Origin: Flavobacteriales bacterium
GTDB taxonomy: Bacteria > Bacteroidota > Bacteroidia > Flavobacteriales_F > PHOS-HE28
DNA length: 64,000 bases
Assembly: GCA_016703005.1 (NCBI GenBank)
Contig: JADJCX010000018.1
Coordinates: 3,794-67,793, forward strand
Reading direction: 5' to 3'
Made by a program: the position numbers and the translations under genes. The notes beneath the pieces are model-generated. The model was not told where the DNA came from. It searched no databases and saw only the letters and a program-made list of their open reading frames with translations. Positions 30,827 to 63,517 of this stretch are shown one piece after another; positions within the stretch are counted from its first letter, which is position 1, and the number at the start of each line of letters is the position of its first letter.

Positions 30827-31911
30827 ATGAGTTCGCTGCTGGAGAAACTGCGCGCCGTGCACGAACGCCGCGCTGAAGTGGAGAAGAGCCTGGCCGACCC
30901 GAGATCGTTATCGCGGACCAGAAGCGGTTCAGGGAACTGAGCCGGAGCTACAAGGACCTGGAGCCGATCGACAATGCCTTCAGGCGCTACGACAAACTGA
31001 CGAGCGAATTGGTCGGTACCAACGAAATGCTGAAGTCCGAGAAGGACTCCGACGTGCTGTCGATGGTCCGTGAGGAGCATGACGCGCTTCGGACGCGGAT
31101 CGAAGCAATGGAGGAGGAGGTGCGCATGTTATTGGTGCCCAAGGACCCCAACGACGACCGCAACTGCACCATGGAAATACGCGCAGGCACCGGTGGCGAC
31201 GAGGCGAGCATTTTCGCCGGGGATCTGTACCGCATGTACACCCGCTACTGCGAACGCCTCGGTTGGAAAGTCGAGGTTGCCGATATCAGCGAAGGCAGTG
31301 CCGGTGGCTTCAAGGAGGTCATCATCAACGTTACCGGCGAAGGGGTCTATGGCGTGCTGAAGTATGAGGCCGGTGTACACCGCGTGCAACGTGTGCCGCA
31401 GACCGAAGCCCAAGGCCGTATCCACACCAGCGCAGCAACCGTCACCGTGCTTCCGGAGGCGGAAGAGTTCGATGTGGAAGTGAAGGAGAGCGATGTGAAG
31501 ATGGAGACCGCCCGCAGCGGTGGGGCCGGTGGCCAGAACGTGAACAAGGTGGAAACGAAGGTGCGCCTCACGCACATCCCCACCGGCATCGTGGTGATGT
31601 GCCAGACCGACCGCAGCCAGTTGGGCAACCGGTTGAAAGCGATGCAAATGCTGCGCACCAAGCTCTATGACGAAGGCTTGCGCAAAGTGCAGGAAGCCGA
31701 GGCCACCCACCGTAAGAGCCAGGTGAGCAGCGGCGACCGTAGTGCCAAGATCCGCACCTACAACTATCCACAAAGCCGCATCACCGATCACCGCATCGAG
31801 TTCACTGCGCACAATCTGCCTGCGGTGATGAACGGCGATCTTCAGGATATCATTGATGCGTTGCAACTGGCCGACCGGACAGAGAAACTGAAAGAGAGCG
31901 CAAGCGCATGA
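30827..31911 (+). CDS. prfA: peptide chain release factor 1; N-terminal 25 codons in another frame (frameshift near 30900)
   Basis: GGQNVNK motif. PQT tripeptide (RF1-type PxT) in [21 protein letters not shown]. An ATG at 30827 gives [25 protein letters not shown]. It then needs one extra nucleotide (CCGGAG read as CCGAG) to join ... [13 protein letters not shown] ... NEMLKSEKD. Confidence 0.8.
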
Positions 31912-32741
31912 CCCGCACCGAACTCGTCTCCATAATCAAGCGCAAGCGCAGCCTGCTGTGTGTGGGTCTCGATACAGAAGCCCATTTGGTGCCTGAGCAA
32001 TTCCGCCGTGCCGCCGACCCGGTGCTCGCCTTCAACGAAGCCATCGTCGATGCCACGCATCAGGTGACGGTCGCGTACAAGTTGAACATTGCGTTCTATG
32101 AAGCGCTTGGCGTATCGGGCTGGACCAGCTTGGAGCGTACGGTAGCTGCGATCCGTGCAAAGGGCGATTGTTTCATCATCGCCGATGCCAAGCGCGGCGA
32201 TATCGGTAACACCGCGCGCAAGTATGCCGAAGCCTTCTACGACAAGCTCGGGTTCGATGCGGTAACGCTCTCACCGTACATGGGCAACGATAGCGTTACC
32301 CCGTTCCTCGGGCGCCCCGGCAAGTGGGCCATTGTGCTGGGCGTCACCAGCAACGAAGGCGCCATGGATTTCCAGTTCCTGCCTGTCGATGACAAGCAAC
32401 ACCTGCTCTTTGAACGGGTAATGACCAAGGTGGCGGAATGGGGCTCACCCGGTGACACCATGTTCGTGGTCGGTGCAACGCGCACCGATGTGCTGGCCCA
32501 AGCGCGTGCTGCGGCGCCCGGCCATTTCTTCCTCGTTCCCGGTGTCGGTGCACAGGGTGGCGACCTGAACGCCGTGCTCGACACATGTATGACCAGTGAT
32601 GGTGGCTTGCTGATCAACAGCTCCCGCGGGATCCTTTATGCGGGCAAGGGCGAGGCTGCGATCCTGCCTGCCGCTAAGGCCGCTGAAGAACTGCAACAGC
32701 AGATGGCTGCCGGGTTGCAGCGCGCAGGGATCCTCAGCTAG
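31908..32741 (+). CDS. pyrF: orotidine 5'-phosphate decarboxylase (long type 2)
   Basis: 277 aa. [10 protein letters not shown] active-site motif. Confidence 0.8.
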
Positions 32742-32824
32742 GATTTTCAACTCTTCGTTCTGTTCACCATCTTGGCAAGGATGGTCCCGACAATTTTCCG
32801 TCAACACTGGCCGAGCCACCGCGT

Positions 32825-34120
32825 TTGGCCTCCTTTCCGCACGGCGAGGATCTGTTGCAGTTCATCTGGGAGCAGCAACTGTTCACGCGTGAAGCCTTGC
32901 GCACGGTGGAGGGACATACATTGGAGATCGTGAAACCCGGAAGGCTGCAACCGAACTCCGGTCCCGACTTCCACGATGGTCGCGTTCGGTTCGATGATCA
33001 ATTGCTGGTGGGCAACATCGAGATCCACGTGCAGGCGAGCGAGTGGTTCGCGCACCGTCACCATGAGGACCCGGCATACGACAACGTGATCTTGCACGTG
33101 GTACACACCCACGATATGGATGTGCGCACGAGCAAGGGTGGCCGTGTACCCACGCTTGCGATCGGCGAACGCATCAGTGGCAGCAGCTTGGCCGCATACG
33201 AGCAATTGATGCGCAACAAGGCTTGGGTGCCTTGCGCCAACAGCATCGCTCAGGTTGATCGGCAGCGCATTGGGTTTTGGTTGGAACGCTTGCTCGTGGA
33301 GCGGTTGGAACGCAAGACCAAGGACGTGGAGGCCTTGTTCAAGCACCTCGGGAACGATGAAGCTGAAACATTCTACCAGCAGTTGGCCGGTGGTTTCGGT
33401 TTCAAGGTGAATGCGGAACCCTTCGGTCAACTGGCGCGCACACTTCCATTGAAGACCCTGTTGAAGTACCGCGACGACCCGTTCCGGACGGAAGCCTTGG
33501 TGCTCGGCCAAGCAGGCCTGCTGCAAGTGGATTTTGTTGATGCTCATCCGCGTGCCTTGCAGGAAGAATTCAAGGCCATGGCTGTTCTGCACGAACTGAA
33601 GCCACTTTCTCCCGCGATCTGGAAATTCGGCCGCTTGCGTCCGGCCAACTTCCCAACGGTGCGGCTGGTGCAGTTCGCTCGTTTGTTCACCCACCTCGAT
33701 GGAGCCTTCGGGAAACTGCTCGAATGCGATCGTATTGCCGATCTGTTCCCGCTGTTCGATGTGGAATCCGCTGACTACTGGCGAGACCATTGGATGCTGG
33801 ACGCGCCTTCCGAACCAACGACTAAGCGGCTCGGTCGCACGGCGGCAGAGTTGCTCATCATCAATGTGGTGGTGCCCTTCCTCTTCGCCATGGGTCGCGT
33901 GCGTGGTAGGGAGGAATTGGTGGAGCGGGCAATGGGACTGTTGGAGCAGCTGCCCGCCGAAGCCAATGTGATCACCCGTGGCTGGGAGAAGCTGGGCATC
34001 CCCGCCACCGCCGCCGCACGCTCGCAAGCCCTTATTGAACTGAAGAACGGTTACTGCGGGCAACGCCGTTGCCTACATTGCGTCATCGGGGCTGAACTGC
34101 TCAAACGCACCAACCAATGA
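32825..34120 (+). CDS. DUF2851-family protein
   Basis: 431 aa. N-terminus LLQFIWEQQLF ... L-x-G-x-L-x-I-x-PG ... N-x-G-PDF is characteristic of the Bacteroidota DUF2851 family. Confidence 0.55.
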   Translation: MASFPHGEDLLQFIWEQQLFTREALRTVEGHTLEIVKPGRLQPNSGPDFHDGRVRFDDQLLVGNIEIHVQASEWFAHRHHEDPAYDNVILHVVHTHDMDVRTSKGGRVPTLAIGERISGSSLAAYEQLMRNKAWVPCANSIAQVDRQRIGFWLERLLVERLERKTKDVEALFKHLGNDEAETFYQQLAGGFGFKVNAEPFGQLARTLPLKTLLKYRDDPFRTEALVLGQAGLLQVDFVDAHPRALQEEFKAMAVLHELKPLSPAIWKFGRLRPANFPTVRLVQFARLFTHLDGAFGKLLECDRIADLFPLFDVESADYWRDHWMLDAPSEPTTKRLGRTAAELLIINVVVPFLFAMGRVRGREELVERAMGLLEQLPAEANVITRGWEKLGIPATAAARSQALIELKNGYCGQRRCLHCVIGAELLKRTNQ

Positions 34121-34347
34121 CCGCACGTCTCAAGACTTTCCTCGAACGCCAAGCCTTCGGCGTTTGCGCGTGGTGGGGCGACAAGCTCAACATCAAGCCG
34201 GAGCAGGTGCGCCTCAGCTTCATCTACCTCGGCTGCATTACCGCAGGCTTGCACCTCGTCGTCTATCTGGTAATGGCCTTCGTGCTCCAGCATAAGGAGC
34301 GTATCAAACGGCCCTTCAGCAAGCGGAGCACGGTTTGGGAGTTGTGA
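34117..34347 (+). CDS. PspC-domain protein (small membrane protein)
   Basis: 76 aa. FLERQAFGVCAWWGDKLNIKPEQVRLSFIYLG matches the PspC domain consensus. One TM segment. Confidence 0.65.
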   Translation: MTARLKTFLERQAFGVCAWWGDKLNIKPEQVRLSFIYLGCITAGLHLVVYLVMAFVLQHKERIKRPFSKRSTVWEL

Positions 34348-34373
34348 CCCCTCGCTGGAATTCATAGTGGCTC

Positions 34374-34516
34374 GGGGGGGGGGGGGGGGGGGGGGGGGGG
34401 CCGGGGGGGGGGTTGGGGGGGGGGGGGGGGGGGGGGGGGGGGCCGGGGGGGTTTTTTTTTTTGGGGGGGGTTTTTTTTTTTTGGTTTTGGGTTTTTGTGG
34501 GGTTTGGGGGGGGGGG
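34374..34516. repeat. extreme low-complexity tract made almost only of long G runs and T runs (G~37 CC G~10 TT G~38 CC G7 T11 G8 T12 ... G11)
   Basis: Directly visible between the PspC gene and the oxidoreductase. No A, and only isolated CC pairs, over about 145 nt. Antisense translation gives poly-Pro and poly-Lys nonsense. Confidence 0.9.
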
Positions 34517-34620
34517 CGGTGAATGATTACGGTCGACATCGCCCTTGTTCGGGAAAGGCTCCTGGCAGTCCATCTCCGTTTCTTAGCAGGACCTTTTGCA
34601 CTGCTCACATCCAGGGTCGC

Positions 34621-36348
34621 TTAAAAGCTCTGGGAGATCGAACAACAACTAGCAGGGGAGCTATTGCGGACACCATCATCATAGGCTCAGGCGCTGGCCA
34701 TTTGTCGGGGGGCCGCGACATCGGCCCCTGGCGGCTTTCGGCACGCGCTGGCAAGAAGGTGTTGGTGTTGGAGCAACACTACGTCCCCGGCGGCTGGTGC
34801 CACAGCTTCTTCCTCAATGGTCATCGCTTCAGTCCGGGTGTACACTACATCGGTATGATGGGCGAGGGGGAGAGCACGCGCGAGTTGTACGAAGGCCTTG
34901 ACATCGCCAACGATCTAGTCTTCTTCCGCATGAACCCTGCGGCCTATGAGCACTGCTGGATCGGCGAGCACCGCATTGATATGCCGGCCGGTATCGACAA
35001 CCTGTACGAGCACTTGGCGCAGCGCTTTCCGCACGAGCGTAAAGGCTTGAAGCGCTACCTCACCACTGTGCGCAACGTGAGCGACCAGTTGCAACTGATC
35101 CACCGCATGAGCGGCTTCCTGGATCACCTCACGATCCCCTTCCGCACGCGGCACTTGGGCAAGTACGGCCTCTTCAGTTTGAAGCGCGTGATCGACTGGC
35201 ACATCAAGGATCCCTTGCTGAAGAAGGTGCTCAACGTGCAATGCGGCGATCACGGGTTGCCGCCCAGCCTGGCACCCTTTCCCGTGCATGCTGCCGTGAT
35301 GCAGCACTACTTCGATGGCGGTTACTATCCCATGGGCGGTGGCGCTGGTATCGTGAAGGCGATGACCACGGCGATCAAGAAGCACGGCGGCGTGGTGCGC
35401 ACCGATGCCGGTGTGAAGCGCATTCTATTGGAAGGCGATGGCAAAGCGAAGCGTGCCGTTGGCGTGGAACTCATGAACGGGGAGCGCATCAACGCGTCAA
35501 CGATCGTCTCCAATGCCGACCCGCACAAGACGTACATCGGCATGGTGGGGAAGGAGCACTTGGACAACAAGGTGTTGAAGAAGTTGGCGGCCACCCGGTA
35601 CAGCGTCACCAGCATCATGCTCTTCGTTACCGTGGACATGGATGTGCGCGCGGCGGGTCTCGATTCCGGCAACATCTGGATGCTGCGCAACGTGGACATG
35701 GAAGAACTCTTCCGCGACATGTCGCGCACCGACATCCTCACCGATGATGAGTTCCCCGGGGCCTTCATCAGTTGCCCCACGCTGAAGGATCCCACCAGCT
35801 TCAATGGGCGTTACCACGACATCGAGATGGTGACCTACCTCGACTACAAGGCCTTCGAACCGTTCGAAGGGCTCGGCGAGCGCACGGCCGAGTATGGCAC
35901 GTGGAAGGAGCGCATCAAGGAGAAGATGCTGAACGGGTTGGAGCGTGTGCTCCCCGGTGTGCGAGCGCGCATCGTGCAAGCCGAGATCGGAACGCCCATC
36001 ACCAACGAGCACTACGTGCAGAGCACACGCGGTAGCGTCTATGGCACCGAGAAGACGTTGAAGCATGTCGGCCCGTTCGCGTTCGGTGTGAAAGCGCCGA
36101 TCGAAGGCTTGTACCTCACCGGGGCCAGCACGCTGACGCATGGCGTGGCGGGTGCATCCATCTCAGGCGTGATCACCGCGGCGGCCGTATTGGGTTGCAC
36201 TAAGGACGACCTGTTGAAGCCCGACCCATCGCAGCGTCTGCGTATCCACGATGCTGAGGATGAAACGACGTGGCCCGAGTGGGTGTGGGTGAAACGTGCC
36301 GACAAACGCAGGCGGTTCAAGCCCGTCGCCGTTCGTGCTGCAACGTGA
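34621..36348 (+). CDS. FAD-dependent oxidoreductase, phytoene desaturase (CrtI)-like / retinol-saturase-like; start codon not identifiable
   Basis: Rossmann motif IIIGSGAGHLSGG from about 34672. LVLEQHYVPGGWCHSF motif. Roughly 560 aa. No in-frame ATG, GTG or TTG exists between the low-complexity tract and the Rossmann motif. Confidence 0.6.
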   Translation, partial: LKALGDRTTTSRGAIADTIIIGSGAGHLSGGRDIGPWRLSARAGKKVLVLEQHYVPGGWCHSFFLNGHRFSPGVHYIGMMGEGESTRELYEGLDIANDLVFFRMNPAAYEHCWIGEHRIDMPAGIDNLYEHLAQRFPHERKGLKRYLTTVRNVSDQLQLIHRMSGFLDHLTIPFRTRHLGKYGLFSLKRVIDWHIKDPLLKKVLNVQCGDHGLPPSLAPFPVHAAVMQHYFDGGYYPMGGGAGIVKAMTTAIKKHGGVVRTDAGVKRILLEGDGKAKRAVGVELMNGERINASTIVSNADPHKTYIGMVGKEHLDNKVLKKLAATRYSVTSIMLFVTVDMDVRAAGLDSGNIWMLRNVDMEELFRDMSRTDILTDDEFPGAFISCPTLKDPTSFNGRYHDIEMVTYLDYKAFEPFEGLGERTAEYGTWKERIKEKMLNGLERVLPGVRARIVQAEIGTPITNEHYVQSTRGSVYGTEKTLKHVGPFAFGVKAPIEGLYLTGASTLTHGVAGASISGVITAAAVLGCTKDDLLKPDPSQRLRIHDAEDETTWPEWVWVKRADKRRRFKPVAVRAAT

Positions 36349-36407
36349 AAGAGCCGCCCATTTCTGGACGGCCCTCTCGTCACCACTCCTTTCGGAGCCA
36401 CGTCAGA

Positions 36408-37004
36408 TCATTCGCACAGCGGGGTGGGAGGAGCGGCTTGCACGCTCCAGCACATGTAGGTTGAAGCAAGGGCATGGGCGGTCCATATGCCACCAGCACC
36501 ACTGCAAGTGAACCACGATTGACCGGCGGGCAGCGCTGGCAATACACCGCGCTTGATCCGCAGTTTCAAGCACTGTCCGTTGTTGCCGCTTTTGCGCGGT
36601 GTCAGGTAATATGTGGCGCCACAGGTAGCTGCGTTGGCACCTTTGGTCATGCGGAACCCGCCTTGGTTCGGCACCTCGCCATCGCAAATGCCTACCGGGT
36701 AGTTGCCACCATCACCCACGCGCAACGATGTTGCGTTCTCGGTGCGTATGGTCGACCGTCCAGTGTTGTCGATGTTCGCTTCGAACTCGCCCAGTTCGGC
36801 GGCGACGTTGCTTACATCGAAACTGTCCCATCCGTTCAAGCCATTGATGAATCGCCCACCCACGGCCTTTGCCATACCATCGTCTCCCACGGTGTTGGTC
36901 GTGAGTTCATCCTGCAGATCTTCCTTGTTGCAACCCACAAGGCTTGCACTTACCGCCGCAACACCCAATAGGATAGCTGCGGTCATCGTCCACTTCGTTC
37001 TCAT
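36408..37004 (-). CDS. hypothetical lipoprotein
   Basis: MRTKWTMTAAILLGVAAVSASLVGC signal and lipobox. Gly/Asn-rich mature part. No recognisable domain. Confidence 0.45.
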   Translation of the reverse strand: MRTKWTMTAAILLGVAAVSASLVGCNKEDLQDELTTNTVGDDGMAKAVGGRFINGLNGWDSFDVSNVAAELGEFEANIDNTGRSTIRTENATSLRVGDGGNYPVGICDGEVPNQGGFRMTKGANAATCGATYYLTPRKSGNNGQCLKLRIKRGVLPALPAGQSWFTCSGAGGIWTAHALASTYMCWSVQAAPPTPLCE

Positions 37005-37206
37005 CGTCTCTCGGTTTTGTTCTGCCAGGCTCCTCCCGGCACAGGGCACTCGTTCATCGAGTGCGGAACAAACCTCACCGCAACGTCCAGGATGGCATCA
37101 TTGGATCCACTCATCCGGTTGTTGGTACCGATGAAATGGGAGACCGACGATGCCGAACCGGAATGAAGACACTCTTTTATTCGCCCGGTTGCGGCATCTT
37201 CGCCAC

Positions 37207-38112
37207 ATGCGCGTCCTCGTTACAGGCAGCAACGGCCTGCTCGGTCAGAAACTCGTTTCCGCGATGCGGAGTGACAAGGATGTGAAGCTCATCGCCACTT
37301 CCCGCGGTGAGGATCGTACGCCGGATCCCGGCGACTATCTCTATTTGTCGCTGGATTGCACCGATGCCGCCGCAGTGAACCGTTGTTTCGACGAAGTGCA
37401 TCCGGATGTGGTGATCCACACCGCCGCGATGACGAACGTTGACGCGTGCGAATTGGATCCGATGAACTGCCAACTGCAGAACGTTACCGCCACCAAGAAC
37501 CTCGTGGACGCATCGGTGGTGTGCGGCGCGCACTTCATCCACCTCAGCACCGATTTCATATTCGATGGTGAGGCCGGGCCATACAACGAAGACGACGAGC
37601 CGAAGCCATTGAGCATCTACGGCCAGAGTAAGCTCGATGCGGAGCACGTTGTCATGAACGCCGGTTTGGCGAAGTGGGCCATAGCGCGGACGATCATCGT
37701 CTATGGCGTGGCTCCTGGCCTTAGTCGTAGCAACGTGGTGTTGTGGGCGAAGAGCGCGCTGGAGAAAGGCCAGCCCATCAAAGTGGTGCACGATCAATGG
37801 CGCATGCCGACGTTGGCAGAAGATCTTGCCGATGGTTGCATCCGCATTGCCACGCGCGGCGCAACGGGCATCTTCAACCTGTGCGGTCCCGATGGCATGA
37901 GCATCCTTGAACTTGTGCAACGTGTTGGCGCATACTTCAAACTCGACACCTCAGTGATCACCGCGATCGACAGTGCGAGCCTGAACCAACCCGCCAAGCG
38001 TCCACCGAAGACAGGCTTCGTTCTGGACAAGTCGCGCCGGGTGTTGGGTTATGCACCGCGCGGCTTCGAGGCCGGGCTTAATGTGTTGGAACAGCAACTC
38101 CAACAACGCTAA
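37207..38112 (+). CDS. dTDP-4-dehydrorhamnose reductase-like NAD(P)-dependent SDR
   Basis: MRVLVTGSNGLLG Rossmann N-terminus. YGQSK catalytic motif. Roughly 300 aa. Confidence 0.65.
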   Translation: MRVLVTGSNGLLGQKLVSAMRSDKDVKLIATSRGEDRTPDPGDYLYLSLDCTDAAAVNRCFDEVHPDVVIHTAAMTNVDACELDPMNCQLQNVTATKNLVDASVVCGAHFIHLSTDFIFDGEAGPYNEDDEPKPLSIYGQSKLDAEHVVMNAGLAKWAIARTIIVYGVAPGLSRSNVVLWAKSALEKGQPIKVVHDQWRMPTLAEDLADGCIRIATRGATGIFNLCGPDGMSILELVQRVGAYFKLDTSVITAIDSASLNQPAKRPPKTGFVLDKSRRVLGYAPRGFEAGLNVLEQQLQQR

Positions 38113-38113
38113 C

Positions 38114-39181
38114 ATGCTCCGTGATATGCCCACCCGAGCGAAGCGCGCTTCCAGTTCCTGGTTCAAGCGTTGGTTCGGTTCGGGCAACGCCAAGCCTCAG
38201 CAACCGCAAGACAGTTTCCTCGCCGACCGGCGATCAACGAAAGAAGGAGTGAAGGACCTTCTGAGCCTGCACCGGGGCGAGCGTGGCGCGTTCGGTTTGG
38301 CCGCTGTGGTGTTGCTCACTGTAACCGCGTGGCTCGGCTATCAGCAGTGGTTTCTTCCGCCTGCCCCGATCGATCTCGGCCCGATGACCGTTGAGGTGCA
38401 AGCCTTCGTTACCGAGGAACAGCAGTATGCGTCATCGAAGAAGGAAACACGGATCGCCGCCGACCTTCAACCCTTCGATCCCAACGCGCTCGACCAAGCC
38501 GGTTGGATAGCGCTCGGATTGAGCGAGCGACAAGCTGCCGGCATCATGCGTTATGTGGATCGTGGCGGTCGCTTCCGTTCGAAAGCCGATGTCGCGAAGA
38601 TGTACAGCATCCAACCCGATCAGTTCGCGCAACTGGAGCCGTTCATATTGCTGCCGGACAGTGCTGCACCGCGTTCCCGCGAGCGAGAGAACAAGCAGTG
38701 GCCAACGCACGAACGATGGGAGAGCAGCGACAGCAGCGATCGGCGGTACGCTGAGCGAAAGGAGGCCGTAGTGGTCGAAGTGAACACCGCTGACACTCTG
38801 CTGCTGGCGGAGGTAAGGGGCATCGGTCCTGCGTTCGCGCGAGGCATTGTGAAGTACCGCGAAAAACTCGGCGGCTATGTGAGCCTCGATCAGCTCAGCG
38901 AGGTCTTCGTGTTGAAGGACAAGCCCGATGCCGTTGCCAAGTTGAAAGACCAACTAGTGCTGGATCCTCTGATGGTGCGCCGCATCAACATCAACACCTG
39001 TTCGGAAGAGGAACTCAGCAGCCACCCGTACATGTGGAAGAAGTGGAGCATCGCCAGAGCCATCATCGCCTATCGCACGTTGCATGGCACCTTCGCCACG
39101 GTTGAAGGCGTGAAAGCCTGTTTGGTGGTGGATGAGGAACTCTACCGGAAGTTGGCGCCGTATCTCACCGTAGGCGAGTAG
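38114..39181 (+). CDS. ComEA-like helix-hairpin-helix DNA-binding protein with N-terminal TM segment
   Basis: Two HhH motifs (VNTADTLLLAEVRGIGPAFARGIVKYREKLGGYVSLDQL and a second degenerate copy). One TM helix near the N-terminus. Confidence 0.55.
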   Translation: MLRDMPTRAKRASSSWFKRWFGSGNAKPQQPQDSFLADRRSTKEGVKDLLSLHRGERGAFGLAAVVLLTVTAWLGYQQWFLPPAPIDLGPMTVEVQAFVTEEQQYASSKKETRIAADLQPFDPNALDQAGWIALGLSERQAAGIMRYVDRGGRFRSKADVAKMYSIQPDQFAQLEPFILLPDSAAPRSRERENKQWPTHERWESSDSSDRRYAERKEAVVVEVNTADTLLLAEVRGIGPAFARGIVKYREKLGGYVSLDQLSEVFVLKDKPDAVAKLKDQLVLDPLMVRRININTCSEEELSSHPYMWKKWSIARAIIAYRTLHGTFATVEGVKACLVVDEELYRKLAPYLTVGE

Positions 39182-39229
39182 CGCGAGTGGCTTTCTCGCC
39201 CACACCGGCTAAACTTGCGCCCCCGTTCC

Positions 39230-39769
39230 ATGTCCACCGTCGATCTCGAAACTCGCCTGCGCACTGCCATCCGCGCCGTGCCCGATTTCCCGAAGCCGGG
39301 TATCCTCTTCCGCGACATCACACCGGTAATGGAGGACCCTGTGCTCAGCAACGCGGTGCTCGATGGATTGATCATTGGACTGAAAGGCCAGCGCATCGAC
39401 GCGATCGCGGGCATCGAAAGCCGCGGCTTCCTCTTCGGGATGCCCCTGGCCATGCGCCTCGGCGTGCCCTTCATCACCGTGCGCAAGAAGGGCAAGCTGC
39501 CGTGGAAAACGGTGGCTTACAAATACGACTTGGAGTACGGCAGTGCCGAGATCGAAATGCACACTGGCGTGGTGCAACCCGGTATGCGAGTGTTGGTGCA
39601 CGATGATCTGCTGGCTACTGGCGGCACGGCGGCTGCGGCTGCCGAGCTGGTGCGCATGCAAGGCGGCACGGTTGCCGGTTTCAACTTCCTCATTGAATTG
39701 TCCTTCCTCAACGGCGCGCAGCGCCTCGTACCTTATGGCGCGGACATCATCCGCCTTGTCACATACTGA
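39230..39769 (+). CDS. apt: adenine phosphoribosyltransferase
   Basis: PRTase motif VLVHDDLLATGGTAAA. Roughly 180 aa. FPKPGILFRDITP is the APRT signature. Confidence 0.85.
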   Translation: MSTVDLETRLRTAIRAVPDFPKPGILFRDITPVMEDPVLSNAVLDGLIIGLKGQRIDAIAGIESRGFLFGMPLAMRLGVPFITVRKKGKLPWKTVAYKYDLEYGSAEIEMHTGVVQPGMRVLVHDDLLATGGTAAAAAELVRMQGGTVAGFNFLIELSFLNGAQRLVPYGADIIRLVTY

Positions 39770-39772
39770 ACC

Positions 39773-40918: not shown

Positions 40919-41007
40919 GTGGGGGCTGAGAGACGATTCTTCAATGTGCAATTGCCCGGATCAATCCCCCGCCTATATTTGCCGCCCCATTACAGAAAAC
41001 GACGCGC

Positions 41008-41199: not shown

Positions 41200-41257
41200 T
41201 ACCAACCTGTGAGCTGTCAATATGTTGCAAGTCCCGTTGAAGGGGACAAGGCCAGCC

Positions 41258-42178: not shown

Positions 42179-42209
42179 CCACGACACAACGAACCAAATT
42201 TCCCAGAAC

Positions 42210-42518: not shown

Positions 42519-42551
42519 CGAGCACTTTTGCCGGTGGAACACCGGCTGGAA

Positions 42552-42747: not shown

Positions 42748-42762
42748 TCCTTGCGCCGATCA

Positions 42763-43145: not shown

Positions 43146-43276
43146 CAATCGGCAGAAACGCAATTCCCCGAGGATCGGTGGAAGTGCAGGTACAGTAGTA
43201 GAACGCGCACAGCGATCAGGCACCGCAACATCAACAACAAATCAACCCGATAGGTTCGGGAGCAAACACCGAGATC

Positions 43277-45974: not shown

Positions 45975-46671
45975 ATGCCGACCCTGAGCAAGAAGCGCAA
46001 GGCCGCCATGGCCAAGTTCGATAGCACGAAGAGCTACAACCTCGCAGAGGCCACCAGCATCGTGAAGCAAGTGAGCACCACCAAGTTCGATGCAACGGTC
46101 GATATCGCCGTGCGCCTTGGTGTTGATCCGAAGAAAAGCACCGAAATGGTGCGTGGTACGGTGAGCCTGCCCCATGGCACCGGCCGTACTGTGAAGGTGC
46201 TGGTGCTCGCTGACCCCGCCAAGTGCGAGGAGGCGATGGCCGCTGGTGCCGACATGGCCGGATTGGACGAGTACGTGGAGAAGATCAAGGGCGGTTGGAC
46301 CAATGTGGATGTGATCATCTGCACGCCCGCCGTGATGGCCAAAGTGGGAGCGCTGGGCCGTGTGCTCGGTCCCCGTGGCCTGATGCCCAAACCCAAAGAC
46401 CGGTACCGTTACCATGGACGTGGCCAAGGCCGTGAAAGAGGTGAAGGCCGGTAAGATCGACTTCAAGGTGGACAAGGCCGGCATCATCCACGCGGTGATC
46501 GGCAAGGCCAGCTTCGACGCCGTGAAACTGAGCGAGAACGCGAACGAACTGTTGCAGACCCTGCTGAAGCTGAAGCCCAGCACCAGCAAAGGGGTTTACA
46601 TCAGGAGCATTTGCATCAGCAGCACCATGAGCCCTGGTGTTCTTGTGGACGCAAGGACCGTAGCCAACTAA
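45975..46671 (+). CDS. rplA: 50S ribosomal protein L1; reading frame broken near 46397
   Basis: Two collinear ORFs (... [10 protein letters not shown] / [26 protein letters not shown] ...). The junction lies at cccaaagaccggtacc. Confidence 0.85.
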
Positions 46672-51646: not shown

Positions 51647-51665
51647 TCGTTCAACAGCACCTACG

Positions 51666-54600
51666 ATGAAGAAGGATGTAAAGCTGACCAGCAACTTCAA
51701 CAAGATCGTCATCAGTCTTGCGAGCCCGGAATTGATCCTGGAGCGCAGCCCATGGTGGAGGTGATCAAGCCGGAGACGATCAACTACCGCACGTACAAGC
51801 CCGAACGCGATGGTTTGTTCTGCGAGCGGATCTTCGGTCCGGTAAAGGATTTCGAATGCCACTGCGGTAAGTACAAGCGTATCCGTTATAAGGGTATCGT
51901 GTGCGATCGCTGCGGTGTGGAAGTGACGGAGAAGAAGGTCCGCCGCGAGCGCATGGGACACATTTCGCTCACCGTTCCGGTGGCGCACATCTGGTACTTC
52001 CGCAGCCTGCCCAATAAGATCGGTTACTTGCTGGGCCTGCCCACCAAGAAGCTCGACCAGATCATCTACTACGAGCGCTATGTGGTTATCCAAGCCGGCA
52101 CCGGTACCGCAACGAACAAGGAGGGTGTTGCCATCCAATACCTCGACTTCCTCACGGAAGAAGAGTACCTCGACGCGCTCGAGCAATTGGGCAAGGACAA
52201 CCAGCACCTCGACGACAGTGACCCGAACAAGTTCATCGCCAAAATGGGCGCTGAAGCATTGAACGACCTGCTCCGTCGTTTGGACTTGGACACCTTGAGC
52301 TATGACCTGCGTCACAAGGCGAATACCGAGACCAGTCAGCAGCGCAAGAACGAAGCACTGAAGCGCCTCAACGTGGTGGAAGCCTTGCGTGAAGCCAACA
52401 CGCGCCGCGAGAACAAGCCCGAATGGATGATCGTGAAGGTGGTTCCGGTCATCCCGCCCGAGTTGCGCCCCCTGGTGCCCCTGGATGGTGGCCGTTTCGC
52501 CACCAGCGATCTGAACGATCTCTATCGCCGTGTGATCATCCGTAACAACCGCTTGAAGCGGTTGGTGGAGATCAAAGCACCTGAGGTGATCCTGCGCAAC
52601 GAAAAGCGCATGTTGCAGGAAGCCGTGGACAGCCTCTTCGACAACAGTCGCAAGAGCAGTGCGGTGAAGAGCGAGAGTAACCGTCCCTTGAAGTCATTGA
52701 GCGATTCGCTCAAGGGCAAGCAGGGCCGGTTCCGTCAGAACCTGCTCGGTAAGCGTGTCGACTACAGTGCACGTTCCGTGATCGTTGTAGGACCCGAACT
52801 GAAATTGCATGAATGCGGTTTGCCCAAGGGTATGGCTGCCGAGTTGTTCAAGCCGTTCATCATCCGCAAGCTCATCGAGCGGGGATTGTGAAGACGGTGA
52901 AGAGCGCCAAGAAGATCGTGGACAAGAAGGAGCCCGTGGTGTGGGACATTTTGGAGAGCGTGCTGAAGGGCCATCCTGTGCTCCTGAACCGCGCACCAAC
53001 GCTCCACCGTCTGGGTATCCAAGCTTTCCAGCCCAAGTTGATCGAGGGCAAGGCCATCCAGTTGCACCCGCTCGTTTGTACGGCGTTCAACGCTGACTTC
53101 GATGGTGACCAAATGGCCGTACACGTGCCCCTCGGACACGCTGCTATCCTGGAAGCCCAACTGCTCATGTTGGCCAGCCACAACATCCTGAACCCTGCCA
53201 ACGGTGCGCCTATCGCGGTGCCTAGCCAGGACATGGTGCTAGGGTTGTATTACATCACCAAAGGGCGGAAGAGCGAAAAGGACCATCCTGTGAAGGGTGA
53301 AGGCCGTACGTTCTACAGCCCTGAGGAGGTGGTTATCGCTTACAACGAGAACCGCGTGGACTTGCACGCTTGGATCAAGGTGCGTTGGACCGGTGTGGAT
53401 GGCAAGAGCCAGATCATCGAGACGACCGTTGGTCGTGTATTGTTCAATGATGTGGTGCCGGATGAGGCTGGCTACATCAACGAGCTGCTGACCAAAAAGG
53501 CTCTTCGCGATATCATCGGCCGTGTGCTGAAGACGGCTGGCACAGCTAAAGCCGCCAAGTTCCACGACGATATCAAAGAGATTGGCTTCAACATCGCCTT
53601 CAAGGGTGGTCTGTCCTTCAACTTGGAGGACGTGATCGTGCCAGACGAGAAGGAGAAGTTGGTGAAAGCAGCGCAGAAGGAAGTGGACGAAGTGATGGGC
53701 AACTACAACATGGGCCTGATCACCAACAATGAGCGTTACAACCAGGTCATCGACATCTGGACACACACGAATAGCCGTGTGACCAAAACGTTGATGGACC
53801 GCCTCGCAGCCGACCGTCAGGGCTTCAACTCCATCTTCATGATGATGGACAGTGGTGCTCGTGGTAGTAAAGAGCAGATCCGTCAGCTCAGCGGTATGCG
53901 GGGTCTTATGGCCAAGCCGCAGAAGAGCGGTGGTGGTGGTTCGCAGGACATTATCGAGAACCCCATCCTCTCGAACTTCAAAGAAGGACTTTCGATCCTT
54001 GAGTACTTCATCAGCACGCACGGTGCCCGTAAGGGTCTCGCCGATACCGCGCTGAAGACCGCTGACGCAGGTTACCTGACCCGCCGTCTAGTGGACGTTG
54101 CGCAGGACGTGGTGATCAACGCCGAGGACTGCGGAACGCTCCGTGGTCTGGTGGCAACGGCACTGAAAAAGAACGAGGAGATCGTGGAGTCGCTCCATGA
54201 TCGTATCCTTGGCCGTTGTGCGGTTCACGATGTCTATCACCCACAGACCGGCGAACTGATCGTGTCGAGCGGTGAGCAGATCACCGAGGATATTGCCACG
54301 ATCATCGGCGCCAGCCCGATCGAGGAGGTGGAGATCCGCAGCGTCCTGACGTGTGAGCAGAAGAAAGGCGTTTGCACCAAGTGCTACGGTCGCAACCTTG
54401 CGACAGGTCGTATGGTGCACATTGGTGAGGCTGTCGGCGTTATCGCCGCACAGTCCATCGGTGAACCAGGTACCCAGCTTACACTGCGTACGTTCCACGT
54501 AGGTGGTGTTGCAGGTAAGATCACCGAGGAAAGCGAGGTGAAAGCCAAATATGATGGCAAGCTCGAGATCGATGAGCTGCGCACTGTGAAGCGGAAGGAC

Positions 54601-55965: not shown

Positions 55966-55976
55966 ACCGAAGCACC

Positions 55977-56294
55977 ATGGCCGAGACCGAAAAACCCAAG
56001 GGCAACCAGCTGAACATTGAGATCAGCGAGGAGGTGGCTGATGGCATTTACAGTAACCTGGCCATCATCACCCACAGCAACTCGGAGTTCGTGCTCGATT
56101 TTGTGCGCGTTATGCCCGGTGTGCCCAAGGCGAAGGTGAGGGCTCGTGTGCTCCTCACTCCCCAGCATGCCAAACGGCTGATGCGTGCGCTTGCGGACAA
56201 CATCAGCAAGTTCGAGCAGGTACACGGCCAGATCAAGGACACCGAGATGCCCCAGATCCCGATGAACTTTGGCGGACCGGCCGCACAGGCCTGA
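55977..56294 (+). CDS. DUF3467-family protein (conserved downstream of rpoC in Bacteroidota)
   Basis: 105 aa. YSNLAIITHSNSEFVLDFVRVMPG core. Confidence 0.6.
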   Translation: MAETEKPKGNQLNIEISEEVADGIYSNLAIITHSNSEFVLDFVRVMPGVPKAKVRARVLLTPQHAKRLMRALADNISKFEQVHGQIKDTEMPQIPMNFGGPAAQA

Positions 56295-56313
56295 GCCAAC
56301 CTAACACAAGGCA

Positions 56314-56343
56314 CAGCCCCCGACGAAAGTCGGGGGCTGTTTG
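56314..56343 (+). terminator. rho-independent terminator of the rpoBC operon
   Basis: cagcccccgac-gaaa-gtcgggggctg followed by tttg. Confidence 0.75.
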
Positions 56344-56578
56344 CGTTAGCGCTAAGGCCAACGGAGCATGGCTTTGATCGGCCATGTTCTGCGGGGAAGG
56401 TTCATCATCGACAGGTGTTCGTCGCCCAATTATGTGGCTTTATTGGCCTTAAATCCCTGTTCGACGGGGCCGGGCTCTTGACAACCCTATTCCGCCTAAC
56501 CCACATTCGACCGTTCTTTTCAAGGATAGCCCCCCGGTTCTTGGATCTGATCTAAATCACCTAAAGACCGAACGCACC

Positions 56579-59500
56579 ATGAATCTCATGACTCCTTGGC
56601 TCTCTGTAATTCCGAATTGGGCCCGCCTCAGCCACCAAGCCTTACTGATGGTTGGTGCCTCGTTAGCCTTCCAGACGGGATATGCCCAATGCTTGACCTC
56701 TCCTGGCGGCGAGAATGGCACATTGACGCCAACATGCAATGGAACAACTCAAACAATTACGGTCTTGGGTCGGGCGCGGGAATACTCCACGGTCCAGCTC
56801 ACCGCAGGAAATACCTACACGTTCAGCATATCAGCCCCGGGTGAGTTCATCACTATCGCCACGACCGCACCCGCTGCGTTGGCTTGGGGTACCACGCCGC
56901 TCACTTATACTGCTGTGACCACGGGTCCGCATCGTTTCTATCATCACCTGAACGCGGCGTGCGGAACGCAAGGTGCGTTCAGTTTCGTGTTCAAGACGCG
57001 ATCGGTGAGTTGTGTTGAGCCCCCTTGCTCCGGCACGCCAGCCGCTGTTACTGTTAGCGGCACGAGCACACCCGTATGTGGTACTGCGGCGGCCCGCACC
57101 TACACCCGTACAGCTGGTTCGACCGGCTTCTCTGGTCTGTCATACCAATGGGCATACAGCCTTACACCCGGCGGGGCGCTCACCAACGTTGGTACGCTGA
57201 ATGCCCTGACGTATTCGACCACCGCTGGTGTTACACAAACCCGCTACTACAAGGTGGTCAGCACTTGCTCTAACGGCGGTGGTAGCGCGGTCTCGAACGA
57301 GATCCCCTATGTTGTGAATCCAGTGCCTTCGGCTACCGCAGGTGGCAACTCTCCGATTTGCGAGGGGGCAACGCTGAACCTCACGGGTACTACGGACATC
57401 GGGACCAGCCATTCTTGGACCGGGCCATCGGGGTTCATCAGCGGCGCGCAGAACCCAACACGGCCGCTTATGACGAGTGCTGATGCAGGTACATACACGT
57501 ACACGGCAACTGTGGCCGCAACAGGTTGTGCCAGCACCCCCAGCAACTATGCGGTAACGGTGAACCCGGGCTTGAGCATTCCGGTGATCACACCGTCCAG
57601 TGCCACCACTTGTGCAGGAGCGGGTCAGCTTTTGACGGCTGCGGCTACCTCCAATGCCACTGTGCCGTCATCGCCTTTCAATAGCACCGGGGGGCCGGCG
57701 ACCATTACGGTGACCAACGCGCAGAATGCCAGCATCTATCCGTGGAACCTTGTGATTAGTGGACTTCCGGCATCCGGGATCACTGTTGCTTCGGTCAACA
57801 TCAACGGTGTTGCGCACACCTTCCCTGATGATCTGGACATCCTGTTGCAATCGCCTACCGGAACCAACGTGGTCCTTATGTCGGACGCGGGTGGCAATAC
57901 CGACGTAACCGCCACGAACTGGACGTTCTCAACGGGTAGCCCGGCGATGTCCGACGCGGGAACGAATGGCTCCGGAACGTACAGTCCGACCAATATTGGA
58001 GCTAGCGATGACTTTCCAACGGCTCCCGGCCCAGGGAACGGATTCAGCCAAGCTTCTCCATCGTTGTCATTGTTCACCGGCAATTTCAATGGCACTTGGA
58101 AATTGCTGATCCGTGATGATGCCAATGGTGATGCCGGGTCGGTGACGAGTTGGAGCATCACATTCAGTCTTCCTGCCCCGGTCAGCTATACGTGGTCTCC
58201 CAACGTGGCATTGAGCGGCACGACCGGTCCATCGGTCACGGCTTCCCCTACAAACACACAGATGTACACGGTTACCGCTTCGCACGGGCCGAACGCCTGC
58301 ACCAGAAGCGCCGACGTGACGATCACAACAGTTGATCCGCCGAATGCCGGCACGGATGCAACGTTGACGATCTGTAGTAACGCAGCCGCCGCAAGCCTCG
58401 TCGCCCAGCTTGGTGGTGCTCCGGATGGCGGTGGTTCTTGGAGTGGTCCTAGTCCTGTCGTGGGGGTATGTACGATCCCACAACCATGAGCCCGGGTTCA
58501 TATCTGTATACCGTGAACGCATCGCCATGTGCGCCTGCTGTAGCAACCGTGACCGTCACCGAAGATCCCGCTACTGTCTGGTATGCCGATGCTGACAATG
58601 ACGGTGCGGGCGACCCGAACGTATCGTTGATGGCTTGCGCGCAACCATTGGGTTACGTGGCGAACGACAATGACGTTTGCCTCGGTGGGCCGGAACCTGG
58701 TCAAGCATGCAACGACGGTGACCCATGTACGATCAACGATGTGGTGAACGGCTCTTGCACGTGCTCCGGCACATTCGCTGGCGACAGTGACAACGATGGG
58801 ACCTGCGACCCCTTGGACGTCTGTCCGGGCTCACCCGAACCTGGCATGGTCTGCAACGATGGAAACCCGTTCACTACCGGGGATGTCGTGAACGGTGCTT
58901 GTGCCTGCGTTGGAACCCCTGTTCCCTGCACGGAGAACGTGGTGTTGGATCTTCACACGGACAATGCTGGCAGTGAGACCAGTTGGGAGATCAAGGACGC
59001 CAACTCTCCCTTTGTGGTTTGCTCGGGAAACTCATACTCCAGCAACTCAATGATCAGTTTGAACTGTTGTCTGGTACCGGGTTGTTATGTGCTGAACGTG
59101 TTCGACAGCTTCGGCGATGGTATGACCACCGGAGGCTACGTTCTGCGCACCGTGGATGGCGATCGGATCATCGACAATGAGAGCGATGGACAGTTCACCT
59201 TCCAGAGCTCCTCACCGCTCGGTTTCTGCGTGCCGATGGGAACGGATAAGCTCACCGTGTTCACTTGCGATCGCGAGGACCTGAGCGCAGGCAGCGTGAT
59301 CGTTGCCAGTGCGAATCCCGCAGTGGCTGGTGAGTTCGGGGTGGGTATCAATCGGATGATGGATACCAGTTCTGGATCTATGACCCCGATGGTTCGTACA
59401 GCCGTCGCATCTATAAGAGCCATGCTTCGCCCGGAGCGGGTGGTGCACCTGGCGCTGATGCCTGCGCCCACCTCAAGTTGAGCAGCATCGTCACGTCCCC

Positions 59501-60290
59501 TGTACCGGCCGACAAGCTGTTGAACGTGCGCGTGCGGAGCAAGGTCAACAACACGTTCGCGGAGTTCGGTCCTGCGTGCAGGATGATGGTCCTCAGCACC
59601 CCGATCGCCTGCCCGACCACGCAGCTTGACAACAACCCGCTGCATGTGGGTACCACCTTGAGCTGCGGTGCCACCGGCAAGGTGGTCGCTGCTTCGGGCA
59701 ACGCCGGTAAACTCTGGCCGAACCTCGTGCCGGGTGCCAACAAGTACCAGTACGAATTCGCGTTCTTGAGCGAGAACTACTTGCGCACGATCTCCCCGCC
59801 CACGGGCCAATACGCCCTGATGTTGGGCAACTGGGTCACCAACCCATTGCTCTGCGGCACGTTCGAATACGATGTGCGCGTGCGGGCCAGCTTCGACGGC
59901 GGTGCTACGTGGTGCCCTTGGGGACCCATGTGCACGGTGGAGATCACCAACAACCCGCCGAACAATTGCAGTGGCTTTGGCGGGTTCACCGGTGGAGGAG
60001 GGTTGAACAGCTTGGAAGAGCCAGAGACCGAGGTGTTGATGTTGCCGAACCCGGTTCGCGATGGTCACGTGCAATTGCAGCTCAAAGCGCTCTCAACCGA
60101 TGCTGCGGAAGTCACGATCGACATTTTCGACCTCTTCGGTAAGCGGGTCATGGCACGCACCATTGCTACTGAAGGTGCCGAGGAATTGACCACCGTGCTC
60201 GAACTGGAGACCAGCATGGCGAAGGGCCTCTACATGGTGAATATTACGATCGGGGACAAGTTGCACGTGCAACGCTTGGTGATAGAGTAG
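56579..60290 (+). CDS. large secreted protein with proprotein-convertase P-domain, Ig-like repeats and Cys-rich D-x-D-G-type repeats, plus T9SS C-terminal sorting domain; reading frame broken about 58465 and about 59340
   Basis: Three collinear ORFs. P-domain-like region ASIYPWNLVISGL ... DDLDILLQSPTGTNVVLMSDAGG ... GTWKLLIRDDANGDAGSVTSWSITF. Repeats C-N-D-G-[DN]-P-[CF]-T-x-[GN]-D-V-V-N-G-x-C-x-C. C-terminus LMLPNPVRDGHVQLQ ... GLYMVNITIGDK is CTD-like. Both breaks sit in G runs. Confidence 0.65.
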
Positions 60291-60382
60291 TGTTGGTTTG
60301 AAGGTGCGAACGCCCGCTTCCGGCAACGGAGGCGGGCGTTCGTGTTTATTATGCAAAGCGTCAGTGCCAGCCAAGAAATGGC

Positions 60383-62665
60383 TCACTCCTGCGCCCGTTG
60401 CGCGAAGATCACGTACCCGAAATTCAGGCTAACGGCCCATGGGTTCGGCAAGCCGTCGATGTAGCTGGTGTTGAACCACACCGGGCCGATGGGGCTTTGG
60501 TAGATGAGCGAGCCGCTGGCCAGGAAGTAGCGATCGGAGATCGCAGTGCCTTCCGTCGAACCGTCGTCCTCCGAGCGTTGGATCTTCTTGTAGGGTTGGA
60601 ACACGTAGCCCTCCAGCCGCAGGTCGAACTTGTTCTTGGCCACAGCAATGATGGTGCGCACGCCACCAGCGGCGTACTGGCTGGCCCGGAAATCCTCAAG
60701 AAAGTACGTCTTGCTTTCCGGCGTCGGTTGGAAGACCGGTGCGCGCGCAACGGTCGCGGTGTAATTGCTGAAGAATGGATAGCCACTATACACCCCTTCC
60801 AACAAGAAGCCGAACTTGAACACCCCACGCGGCAGGAAATATTTGTCCAGCGTGACTTTTGCCACGAGCCATTCGTGGTGATGGCCGATGGGTTCGCGGG
60901 AAGTTTCGCCAACGGTTCCCGGCGTTGTCACCTCATTGCCGCCAAAATACCGCAGTTCCGCCTTCAAGCACTCGCCGGCGTTCGCGTGCTGTTTCCGGTT
61001 GAGGCTGTTGCGTTCGAGCATCAGACCGGTGGTTACATAATTGAACTCGGTTACATCCGCCGTGTCGGTTGCGCTCCATTCCAGCGACTGGTAATAGCTG
61101 TCCCGGCTCTGCGCGTATTTGAAGTCGTAGCGCAGCAGGCCCTTGTTGCCAACGCTCAGCCCGGTGCTGACGCCGCCCCAACTCTCGCGCAGCACGATGT
61201 AACTCGGCCGCACTTCATCGAAGAACGTCGTGAAACTGCTGAAGTGATCCCAGCGATGGATCGTGAAGGCCGGCTCCACGTACAATGGGATATTCGTACT
61301 GAAGTCGATACGCAGTTTGGCTTGTCCCGCCGCGTAGAATTTCCCGAAATAGGAAAGCGCTTCCAAGCGCGCGCTGGCGCGACCGAAGATGTTGTACCGT
61401 AAGCCGACCATCCCGGTGTTGATCGGTCGGCTGCTGAAGATCCCCCCAAAGCGCACATCAAGTTTCTTTTCGCGCTTCACCAACAGCTCAAGATCATAGT
61501 TCCCGTTCAGCGGGTTGTAGGTGGCTTTCGGGTGCAGGCCGGCCACGTTGTTGTCCGCATATAGTCTGAAGTAGCGTGGCTTTAGCCCAGCCGTGGTCAG
61601 CGGCTGCGGATCGCGTCAAGCAGCGTGCGTTCCACATACTTCGACTGCTTCTTCGTCAATCCCTCAATGCGCACATCGCCGAACACGGGTGCATGCATCT
61701 TTCGCTTCCAATCCGCGCGTCGCACGCTGGTGTCTTCAGCAGTCTGGTATTTCGAGATCATCGCCTTGATCTCCGGCATTCGTGCCATGGTGGCCTTGTA
61801 GCCGTCCTCGATCGTGGTGGCCGGATCGCTGAAATCGAACAACGTCGTAGCGCTTTGCGGTAGCACGATCACGCTGTGCTCGCATGGAATGGTATAATCC
61901 GTTTGCTGCTGCATCATCGCGCGCAACTGGCTCATCAGGTCGTCCTCGTTGGGGGGGGCCATTGTTGCCCACGTTACTGCCAATGATCGCATCGGGCAGG
62001 AAGGCGTTGTACAACACATCGCTGGGGAAGTTGTTGAACAAGCCGCCGTCCATCATCAAATGCCCATCAACGCGGATGGGTTTGAAGTAGAACGGGTAAC
62101 TCATGCTGGCCCTGACGGCCTGCGCGAGATCGCCTTTTGAAAAGATGACCGGCCTGTTCGCCGTAATGTCGCTGGCCACGCAGCGGAACGGGACGAAAAG
62201 ACTGTCCATGTCGTACTTGGCCGCCGCGCTCGCAGGGGCGAAGCTCCGCATCTGTTCAAAGTCGATGAGCACCGGGCTGCGCAGGTTGGTGGGCAGACTT
62301 AACTGAATCGTGGTGTCGAGATCCAACTTGACGGTCACCAGAGAGGCATCGGGGGCGTCCTGTTTGAAGTAGTACATGTATTCATCCTCGATCCCACCCC
62401 TCGCCATCAGTTTGTTCAAGTCGGTATTGAACACCGAATCGATCTCACTGGGCGAGTACCCAGCAGCGTACATACCGCCGATCGGCGCCCCCATGCTGCT
62501 ACCGGCGATGCAATCAATGGGAATGTCGTTCTCCTCCAATGCCTTCAGTACACCGATGTGCACCATGCCCACGGCTCCGCCTCCGCTGAGCACTATGCCC
62601 ACGCGTTGCGCGTTGACGCTGAGCGCCAGCACAAGCAACAAGAACAGGGAAGGGATGCGGGGCAT
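60383..62665 (-). CDS. patatin-like phospholipase fused to a C-terminal Omp85/BamA-like beta-barrel; reading frame broken about 61955 (G8/C8 run) and about 61590
   Basis: Signal peptide. GIVLSGGGAVGMVHIGVLKALEE oxyanion motif, GSSMG nucleophile, MDGG Asp motif. The downstream ORFs are collinear (... IIGSNVGNNGPP / NEDDLMSQLR ... LLDAIRS / PQPLTTAGLKPRYFRLYADNNVAGLHPK ...). C-terminal roughly 390 aa is beta-strand rich. Confidence 0.65.
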
Positions 62666-62707
62666 CGGCGATGGGTGGGCGAAAGTACGTGCCCCCCAAC
62701 GCCCGCT

Positions 62708-63517
62708 TCAGGCCGATAGTGTGCTCAACAGACCGTTGAAATAAGCAGGCGCTTTGAGCAAACGACTGCCGTACCAACTGAACAATTCGCCGTCCACCAA
62801 ACGCACCGGAGTGCCCGGGCAGATCATGTTGAACGCAGCGATATGCTTTTCAGCGAACGGATAGGGCTCAGAGGGAAGCAGAATGATATCCGGATCCGCC
62901 TCGGCCACTTCGCGGGCAGTCAATTCTGGATATCGCGGATCGCCCTCATCGAACACGTTAACCAACCCGCAACGCTGAAGCATATCGTTGATGAAGGTGC
63001 CTTGACCCGCCGTCATAAAAGGTTCCCGCCAAATGAAGTACGCCACGGTCAAGGGCGGGTCTAATGGCCGAACCTCCGCGAAGCCTTTTCCAATGTTCGT
63101 GATCAGACTTTCCGCCTTGACCTGTGTGGCTGTGAGGTCGCCGAGACGGCGGATCATGTCAAGCGCCCCCGACAGGTCGCGCACGTCGCTCATCCATACC
63201 GGGAATTCCTTCTCCAACGCTTCGATGTCCTGCCGCTCGTTCTCTTCCTTGTTGCCGATGATGAGGTCCGGCTTCAACGCACGGAGCTTCACCATGTCCA
63301 CTTTCTTGGTGCCGCCCACACGGTGTTTCGTGCGGAACCACGTGTCAGGATGTATGCAGAACTTGGTGATTCCGACCACGCGCTCGCCCAAGCCGAGATC
63401 GTAGAGCAGTTCGGTTTGGGAGGGGACCAGGGAGATGATGCGTTGGGGCATCTCTGGCGCAAGAACCGATCGGCCCATCTGGTCGACCAGTGTAAGGTTG
63501 TTATTAGCGGAGTGCAT
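62708..63517 (-). CDS. periplasmic-binding-protein-fold protein (BtuF/FecB-like ABC substrate-binding or helical-backbone metal receptor family); no obvious signal peptide
   Basis: RIISLVPSQTELLYDLGLGERVVGIT ... PDLIIG ... motif typical of cluster A-2 SBPs. Start taken at MHSANNN (63517). Confidence 0.5.
   Translation of the reverse strand: MHSANNNLTLVDQMGRSVLAPEMPQRIISLVPSQTELLYDLGLGERVVGITKFCIHPDTWFRTKHRVGGTKKVDMVKLRALKPDLIIGNKEENERQDIEALEKEFPVWMSDVRDLSGALDMIRRLGDLTATQVKAESLITNIGKGFAEVRPLDPPLTVAYFIWREPFMTAGQGTFINDMLQRCGLVNVFDEGDPRYPELTAREVAEADPDIILLPSEPYPFAEKHIAAFNMICPGTPVRLVDGELFSWYGSRLLKAPAYFNGLLSTLSA

Follow-up and report, generated by a model that had tools for sequence, protein, structure and literature searches.

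Why should genes as essential as rpoC, rplA and prfA be interrupted by frameshifts in a 64,000-nucleotide (nt) stretch of Flavobacteriales DNA that also carries their neighbours? The stretch, called the window below and meant at its full length, covers positions 3,794–67,793 of contig JADJCX010000018.1 (forward strand) in the draft assembly GCA_016703005.1. It derives from a member of the Bacteroidota, has a G+C content of about 58 % and contains the cluster tuf-secE-nusG-rplKAJL-rpoBC. Several large accessory genes in it are broken in the same manner. The breaks are most likely errors in the consensus of this draft assembly alone, of the kind left by a Nanopore-type long-read consensus without effective short-read polishing, and the underlying organism most likely has intact rpoC, rplA, prfA and other affected genes; we place the probability of this reading at about 0.93.

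Frame breaks were first checked by translation and then by alignment to assemblies of the same species. Four such assemblies, all collinear with the window, were retrieved by exact-protein look-ups: GCA_963851765.1 (a 3.43-Mb contig), GCA_017989535.1, GCA_016718415.1 (JADKDH) and GCA_016706435.1 (JADJJQ). GCA_902825795.1 served as a sister-species comparator. Nucleotide identity between the window and the same-species assemblies is 98.1–99.1 % over 24–64 kb and averages 96 % over 4–25 kb. Insertions and deletions (indels) private to the window were taken from nucleotide multiple alignments in which each site is covered by one to four same-species assemblies. The census spans about 60 kb; 1–4.1 kb of the window has no same-species reference and was left out. 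Coordinates are those of the window, and affected genes lie on the plus strand unless the minus strand is named.

Twenty small window-private indels were found (0.33 per kb), 17 in coding sequence and 3 between genes, together with one junk stretch at 34374–34740. Deletions (12) outnumber insertions (8), and the five tRNA genes of the window are all free of indels. None of the 20 indels, nor the junk stretch, is present in any same-species comparator covering the site. The preliminary description of this DNA had counted at least 13 frame breaks in 64 kb, a figure now exceeded by the 17 frame-shifting coding indels, the junk insertion and the three intergenic events. It had also called them single-base indels, which holds for most; two events change 2 nt (+AT at 30904 and the loss of two bases at 61955), and one block is 151 nt long. 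Its central claim, that the breaks in essential genes are assembly artefacts, is borne out, as up to four same-species assemblies lack every break and reverting the indels restores the proteins. Independent sequence carrying the same breaks, which it had named as the finding that would overturn the claim, was looked for in the same-species assemblies and the result was the opposite, the breaks being missing.

Gene calls in the same-species assemblies are intact for rpoC (1432 aa), rplA (231 aa), prfA (360 aa), the OmpA/PD40 gene (671 aa) and the patatin gene (761 aa), with one exception: GCA_016706435.1 carries a private 1-nt deletion in prfA, at 30932. The type IX secretion system (T9SS) protein is 1237 aa long in two same-species assemblies; in GCA_016718415.1 it is split, but elsewhere than in the window (at 58813).

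The rpoC gene contains three window-private indels. At cggggattg a run of five G has become four (52880–52884), beside a C-to-T change that turns GATC into GATT; one frame ends there in LIERGL followed by a stop and the gene continues in another. The spacer at this site is 5 nt in all 80 metagenome contigs that match its flanks and 4 nt in the window. Upstream, in codons 28–31, a C has been inserted at 51749 and a G at 51757, and the N-terminal open reading frame (ORF) meets a stop just ahead of the ORF that begins at 51752. The G-run lesion had been described correctly, and what had passed for one further break near 51750 is two insertions. For rplA, a 1-nt insertion with an adjacent substitution lies at 46386 inside gatgCccaaaccc; the gene is indeed broken, with the lesion 11 nt upstream of 46397, the point where the frame runs out and to which the break had been assigned. 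The frame switches in both genes were also seen by tblastn with the ORFs of three relatives whose RpoB is 88–89 % identical.

In prfA, which encodes release factor 1 (RF1), both the gene and the site (gacccgagatc, 30898–30906) had been named correctly, and the lesion proves to be a 2-nt insertion, AT at 30904–30905, in place of a single base. The true frame here is fixed because the sister species reads LADPSVIADQ. The gene for an OmpA/PD40/TPR outer-membrane protein has a C inserted at 27747, missing from three other assemblies and agreeing with the break already reported near 27742. The T9SS (Por_Secre_tail) protein gene has lost one G from a run of six at 58461–58465, as had been proposed, and one base at 59347–59348 (tat-caat), which lies outside the neighbouring G runs that had been held responsible for this second break.

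The patatin-like phospholipase gene, on the minus strand, is broken at the G8 run that had been pointed out. This run occupies 61951–61958 and represents a 2-nt collapse (event at 61955) of an interrupted run, G6CG3, or G3AG6 in one assembly. Its second lesion is the reduction of CC to C at 61616–61617 and not at about 61590. The two shifts compensate each other, leaving about 110 codons between them out of frame. A suggestion from tblastn that the patatin reading is a plus-strand shadow ORF opposite an intact minus-strand gene was rejected, since translation reveals two compensating shifts on the minus-strand gene itself. All breaks listed in the preliminary description were confirmed, each no further than about 25 nt from its stated position; for the rplA break, the second T9SS break and the second patatin break, the lesions lie 8–26 nt from where they had been placed and outside the runs named.

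When only the listed indels are reverted, all six genes regain exactly the reference length at 98–100 % identity: 1430/1432 residues for rpoC, 230/231 for rplA, 359/360 for prfA, 663/671 for the OmpA/PD40 gene, 1216/1237 for the T9SS gene and 752/761 for the patatin gene. None of the six repaired ORFs has an internal stop. The alignments and reversions show directly that the indels are assembly-private, scattered regardless of essentiality or frame, and dependent on run length, and that undoing them is sufficient to restore the genes.

The damage extends to the public record. Protein MBK6776382.1 is identical to the window's RpoB over 1281 aa (from residue 17 of the long ORF), and MBK6776352.1 is an M28 peptidase of the 71,598-bp contig that encodes it. 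A search with the C-terminal part of the window's RpoC returned the full-length RpoC (1432 aa) of sibling assemblies and none from the contig of MBK6776382.1. With RpoB and the M28 peptidase deposited and RpoC missing, rpoC appears to be broken already in the record, either unannotated or treated as a pseudogene.

The breaks could instead be real mutations: a lineage in decay, or one that hypermutates, might carry genuine frameshifts and rescue some of them by slippage during transcription or translation. The breaks themselves are all that speaks for this, along with the consideration that the accessory multicopper oxidase, T9SS cargo and patatin genes could in principle tolerate loss. Several frameshifted genes within tens of kilobases do recall the pseudogenes of decaying genomes. 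However, essential genes of the window are affected as often as accessory ones: rpoC (three times), rplA and prfA are hit, and these three are essential and single-copy, with repaired products 99.6–99.9 % identical to same-species proteins. The same species has intact copies, and the correct frames hold neither in-frame stops nor other marks of decay.

Selection on the window points the same way. Every one of the 17 window-private indels in coding sequence shifts the reading frame; the 4 other coding indels all leave it intact (Fisher P = 1.7e-4). Those four lie at 29152 (3 nt) and at 29648, 13009 and 13029 (6 nt each), and only one is common to several assemblies; other 1-nt length differences that are not private to the window (27405, 40944 and 60361) are all intergenic. 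Window-private substitutions fall at codon position 3 in 46 of 69 and 25 of 42 cases and are synonymous in 71 of 111 (63 %). Their mostly synonymous, third-position character points to ordinary purifying selection on the lineage, and neither the relaxed selection nor the in-frame stops expected of pseudogenes were seen in these substitutions and repaired ORFs. For the same reason, the view that the private substitutions are random errors was rejected; the window is a genuine, slightly different strain in which the errors are essentially indels, substitutions not being the main error type.

The two sibling drafts GCA_016718415.1 and GCA_016706435.1 each show private indels too, located elsewhere (e.g. 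the T9SS and prfA breaks at 58813 and 30932 mentioned above), which likewise argues against real mutations. Taken together, genuine frameshifting in the lineage is very improbable. A phase-variable homopolymer acting as a contingency locus was considered and rejected, the patatin G8 being interrupted (G6CG3 or G3AG6) in three other assemblies and the other runs being no longer than 6 nt. GCA_016706435.1 further shows a private 120-nt deletion at the equivalent of 25825, at the junction of a TPR protein gene and the next hypothetical gene, and a private 1-nt deletion in the flavin adenine dinucleotide (FAD) oxidoreductase gene (35479). In a more distant relative with about 89 % RpoB identity, JADJOG010000004.1, rpoB is present as two overlapping ORFs (9932–13836), an artefact of the same class.

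Programmed ribosomal frameshifting of the prfB or dnaX type is another conceivable reading of the breaks. A broken release-factor gene superficially recalls the +1 frameshift of prfB, the gene for release factor 2 (RF2), as both are split between two frames near the 5′ end, in the window at codon 26. The gene in the window is nevertheless prfA, as its PCRF and RF-1 domains and N-terminal sequence identify the product as RF1. Unlike prfB, it has a +2 insertion, without an in-frame UGA or a Shine-Dalgarno-like stimulator, and the 2 nt are missing from each of the four relatives compared. No break site in the window is conserved in any orthologue compared, and the shifts (+1, -1, +2 and -2) share no slippery motif. 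The chance that recoding explains the breaks is thus practically negligible, in line with the earlier view that programmed frameshifting is implausible.

The relation of error rate to homopolymer length fits a homopolymer-sensitive platform (of the Nanopore, 454 or Ion Torrent type). For single bases the error probability is 1.4e-4 per run; it reaches 5.9e-2 in runs of 5 and 0.18 in runs of 6, roughly a 1000-fold increase, and runs of at least 5 nt are affected 327 times as often as shorter runs (Fisher P = 2e-11). Among the 18 events that could be assigned to a run, 5 are in runs of at least 5 and 11 in runs of 1–2. The attribution to a homopolymer-sensitive platform in the preliminary description therefore stands as far as the rate climbs with run length, and has to be qualified in that most single events fall in very short runs.

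It is also conceivable that the contig collapses two or more co-occurring strains into one consensus and that indels arise where the strains differ. The breaks would still be artefacts, caused by population heterogeneity and not by base-calling chemistry. Indels do occur within a few nt of window-private substitutions at 46386, 52880/52885, 59347, 63900 and 30893–30904, public data hold at least four strains that are 1–2 % apart, and a copper-resistance island in the window is only 85–92 % identical to the reference between flanks of at least 99 %. Against this, five events are pure changes in the length of runs of at least 5 nt with no variation nearby, the dependence on run length is very strong, and the private substitutions look like real synonymous single-nucleotide polymorphisms of a strain and not like a mosaic. 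Nor can a strain mixture give rise to the poly-G/poly-T block described below. As the cause of the breaks it is unlikely, although it may contribute to the indels.

The block in question was the largest artefact in the range covered by the preliminary description, and went unmentioned there. At 34374–34530 the window holds 151 nt of the form G27 CC G10 TT G28 CC G7 T11 G8 T12 and so on, including a G11 run, in place of the 9 nt on which the other four assemblies agree. Another ~210 nt of garbled sequence follow, with four more insertions of 6, 13, 20 and 18 nt (57 extra bases). As a whole, the junk (34374–34740) removes the beginning of a gene for an FAD-dependent oxidoreductase, 556 aa long elsewhere, at which the four other assemblies mutually agree. 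The block may be an uncorrected segment of a noisy read that survived since no short reads could map there. The HiSeq X uses four-colour chemistry. A two-colour Illumina poly-G artefact is the less likely origin, given that the short reads would be HiSeq X reads if the contig comes from the project of PMC8012365. A naive scan could take 34374–34740 for a striking low-complexity or G-quadruplex feature.

As to the source, the contig would come from a long-read (Nanopore-type) metagenome assembly in which short-read polishing missed these positions. MBK6776382 is in the same numeric block as proteins of the same-species sibling metagenome-assembled genomes (MAGs) JADJJQ and JADKDH, which hints at a shared pipeline. 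The more distant JADJOG relative, from a neighbouring accession, has a Canu-style ‘tig’ contig name and the isolate name ‘Fred_18-Q3’, which resembles the MAG identifiers of PMC8012365. In that study of activated-sludge MAGs (Singleton et al. 2021), Nanopore reads were assembled with Canu and polished with Racon and medaka r941, and then with Racon and Illumina HiSeq X reads under the option --include-unpolished, so that unpolished sequence is kept on purpose. Sereika et al. 2022 (PMC9262707) describe short-read polishing as needed against homopolymer-derived indels in Nanopore assemblies. The window resembles the residual indels of R9.4.1-era Nanopore MAGs treated in these two papers in that its indels are private, frame-breaking, spread over essential and accessory genes and more frequent with homopolymer length; in addition, sibling MAGs in neighbouring whole-genome shotgun accessions show private indels, and the pipeline of PMC8012365 would retain unpolished sequence. 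It differs from them in its many events in runs of 1–2 and in the 151-nt poly-G/poly-T block, and its membership of the PMC8012365 data set is suggested by accession neighbourhood only.

Several points weigh against a Nanopore-type consensus error as the explanation. The errors are inferred by comparison with strains that are 1–2 % divergent rather than with DNA of the same sample; the platform is unproven, the accession-based tie to a Nanopore project being circumstantial. The share of events in runs of 1–2 (11/18) and of insertions (8/20) is unlike the textbook picture of deletions in long homopolymers. Window-private substitutions stand directly beside several indels (46386, 52880 and 63900), which may mean instead that co-assembled strains confused the consensus. 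Additionally, two copper-island genes that are intact in the window are split in the best reference, GCA_963851765.1.

A further pattern concerns the motif GATC. Of the 16 small private indels in 24–64 kb, 6 have a GATC no more than 6 nt away, compared with 13 % of background positions (P = 0.014), and a stricter subset of 12 indels gives P = 0.003. No such enrichment was seen near the indels of the other assemblies. The window has three copies of the 9-mer CCCGAGATC (12985–12993, 30898–30906 and, on the minus strand, 3008–3016), and the first two coincide exactly with frame breaks. Should the assembly derive from Nanopore reads, the indels might be non-random and represent a footprint of GATC methylation (Dam-type N6-methyladenine, m6A). 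However, GATC 4-mers are not preferentially altered in the window (10/309, compared with 2.4 % overall), which weakens the idea and leaves it resting on indel proximity. A footprint of this kind is quite unlikely, and a methylation-linked base-calling bias is possible but unsupported. If it were true, the error map would be an indirect readout of the methylome of an uncultured Flavobacteriales lineage.

With consensus error as the preferred explanation, there is no biological feature at these sites, and their value is that of a practical quality flag. Anyone calling genes, pseudogenes, operons or ‘novel small ORFs’ in this contig has to reckon with an indel error rate of about 0.33 per kb and with one or more blocks of mere junk. 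Completeness and pseudogene statistics of this MAG will be distorted, and these errors are evidently why no RpoC protein was deposited. Other findings from the window should be discounted if they hinge on where an ORF starts or stops, or on the low-complexity sequence around 34.4 kb.

The remaining small indels are distributed as follows. In the DUF2851 gene (446 aa elsewhere) one T has been lost near codon ~5, the window reading T4 at 32793–32796 where two assemblies read T5 and one CT4. All three intergenic events are 1-nt deletions: TT to T at 41214 and a single A at 41227, both between rpsU and a xerD-like gene, and G3 to G2 at 43171–43172, between tRNA-Thr and tuf. On the minus strand, a gene for a hypothetical protein of 225 aa has lost one A from a run of four at 63865, as seen by alignment, and one base gained at 63900, where the sequence is garbled, compensates for this deletion.

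The copper-resistance island (7000–14100), which encodes an AraC regulator, an HMA protein, a P-type ATPase, a DUF3347 protein and a multicopper oxidase, accounts for 4 of the 17 coding breaks. The gene for the copper P-type ATPase (809 aa in relatives) has a 1-nt insertion at 10021 that splits it into ORFs at 8412–10415 and 10021–10848; tblastn with a relative's protein switches from frame 3 to frame 1 there, and alignment to GCA_963851765.1 agrees. The multicopper oxidase gene (740–763 aa in relatives) carries the other three: a deletion from A5 to A4 at 12401–12404 and one from GG to G at 12985–12993 (event at 12987), which turns CCCGGAGATC into CCCGAGATC, both supported by tblastn and alignment, and a C inserted at 13490 that is missing from both covering comparators, GCA_963851765.1 included.

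The island has a G+C content of about 63 %, compared with 58 % for the window. This composition and the identity to GCA_963851765.1 of 85–92 % inside and at least 99 % on both flanks suggest a different, probably exchanged, allele. Two island genes intact in the window are split in GCA_963851765.1: the AraC-type regulator into 134 and 73 aa (3204–3775 of the retrieved stretch; window 7320–7904), and the DUF3347 gene into an ORF of 163 aa and an antisense ORF (6778–7645 of the retrieved stretch; window 10827–11768). Therefore GCA_963851765.1, though clean otherwise, is not error-free either. At the other end of the window, the sister species GCA_902825795.1 is without the 3.7-kb T9SS (Por_Secre_tail) cargo gene; its patatin gene comes directly after a DUF3467 gene, the regions compared being 10319–10459 of the retrieved stretch and 56295–60382 of the window.

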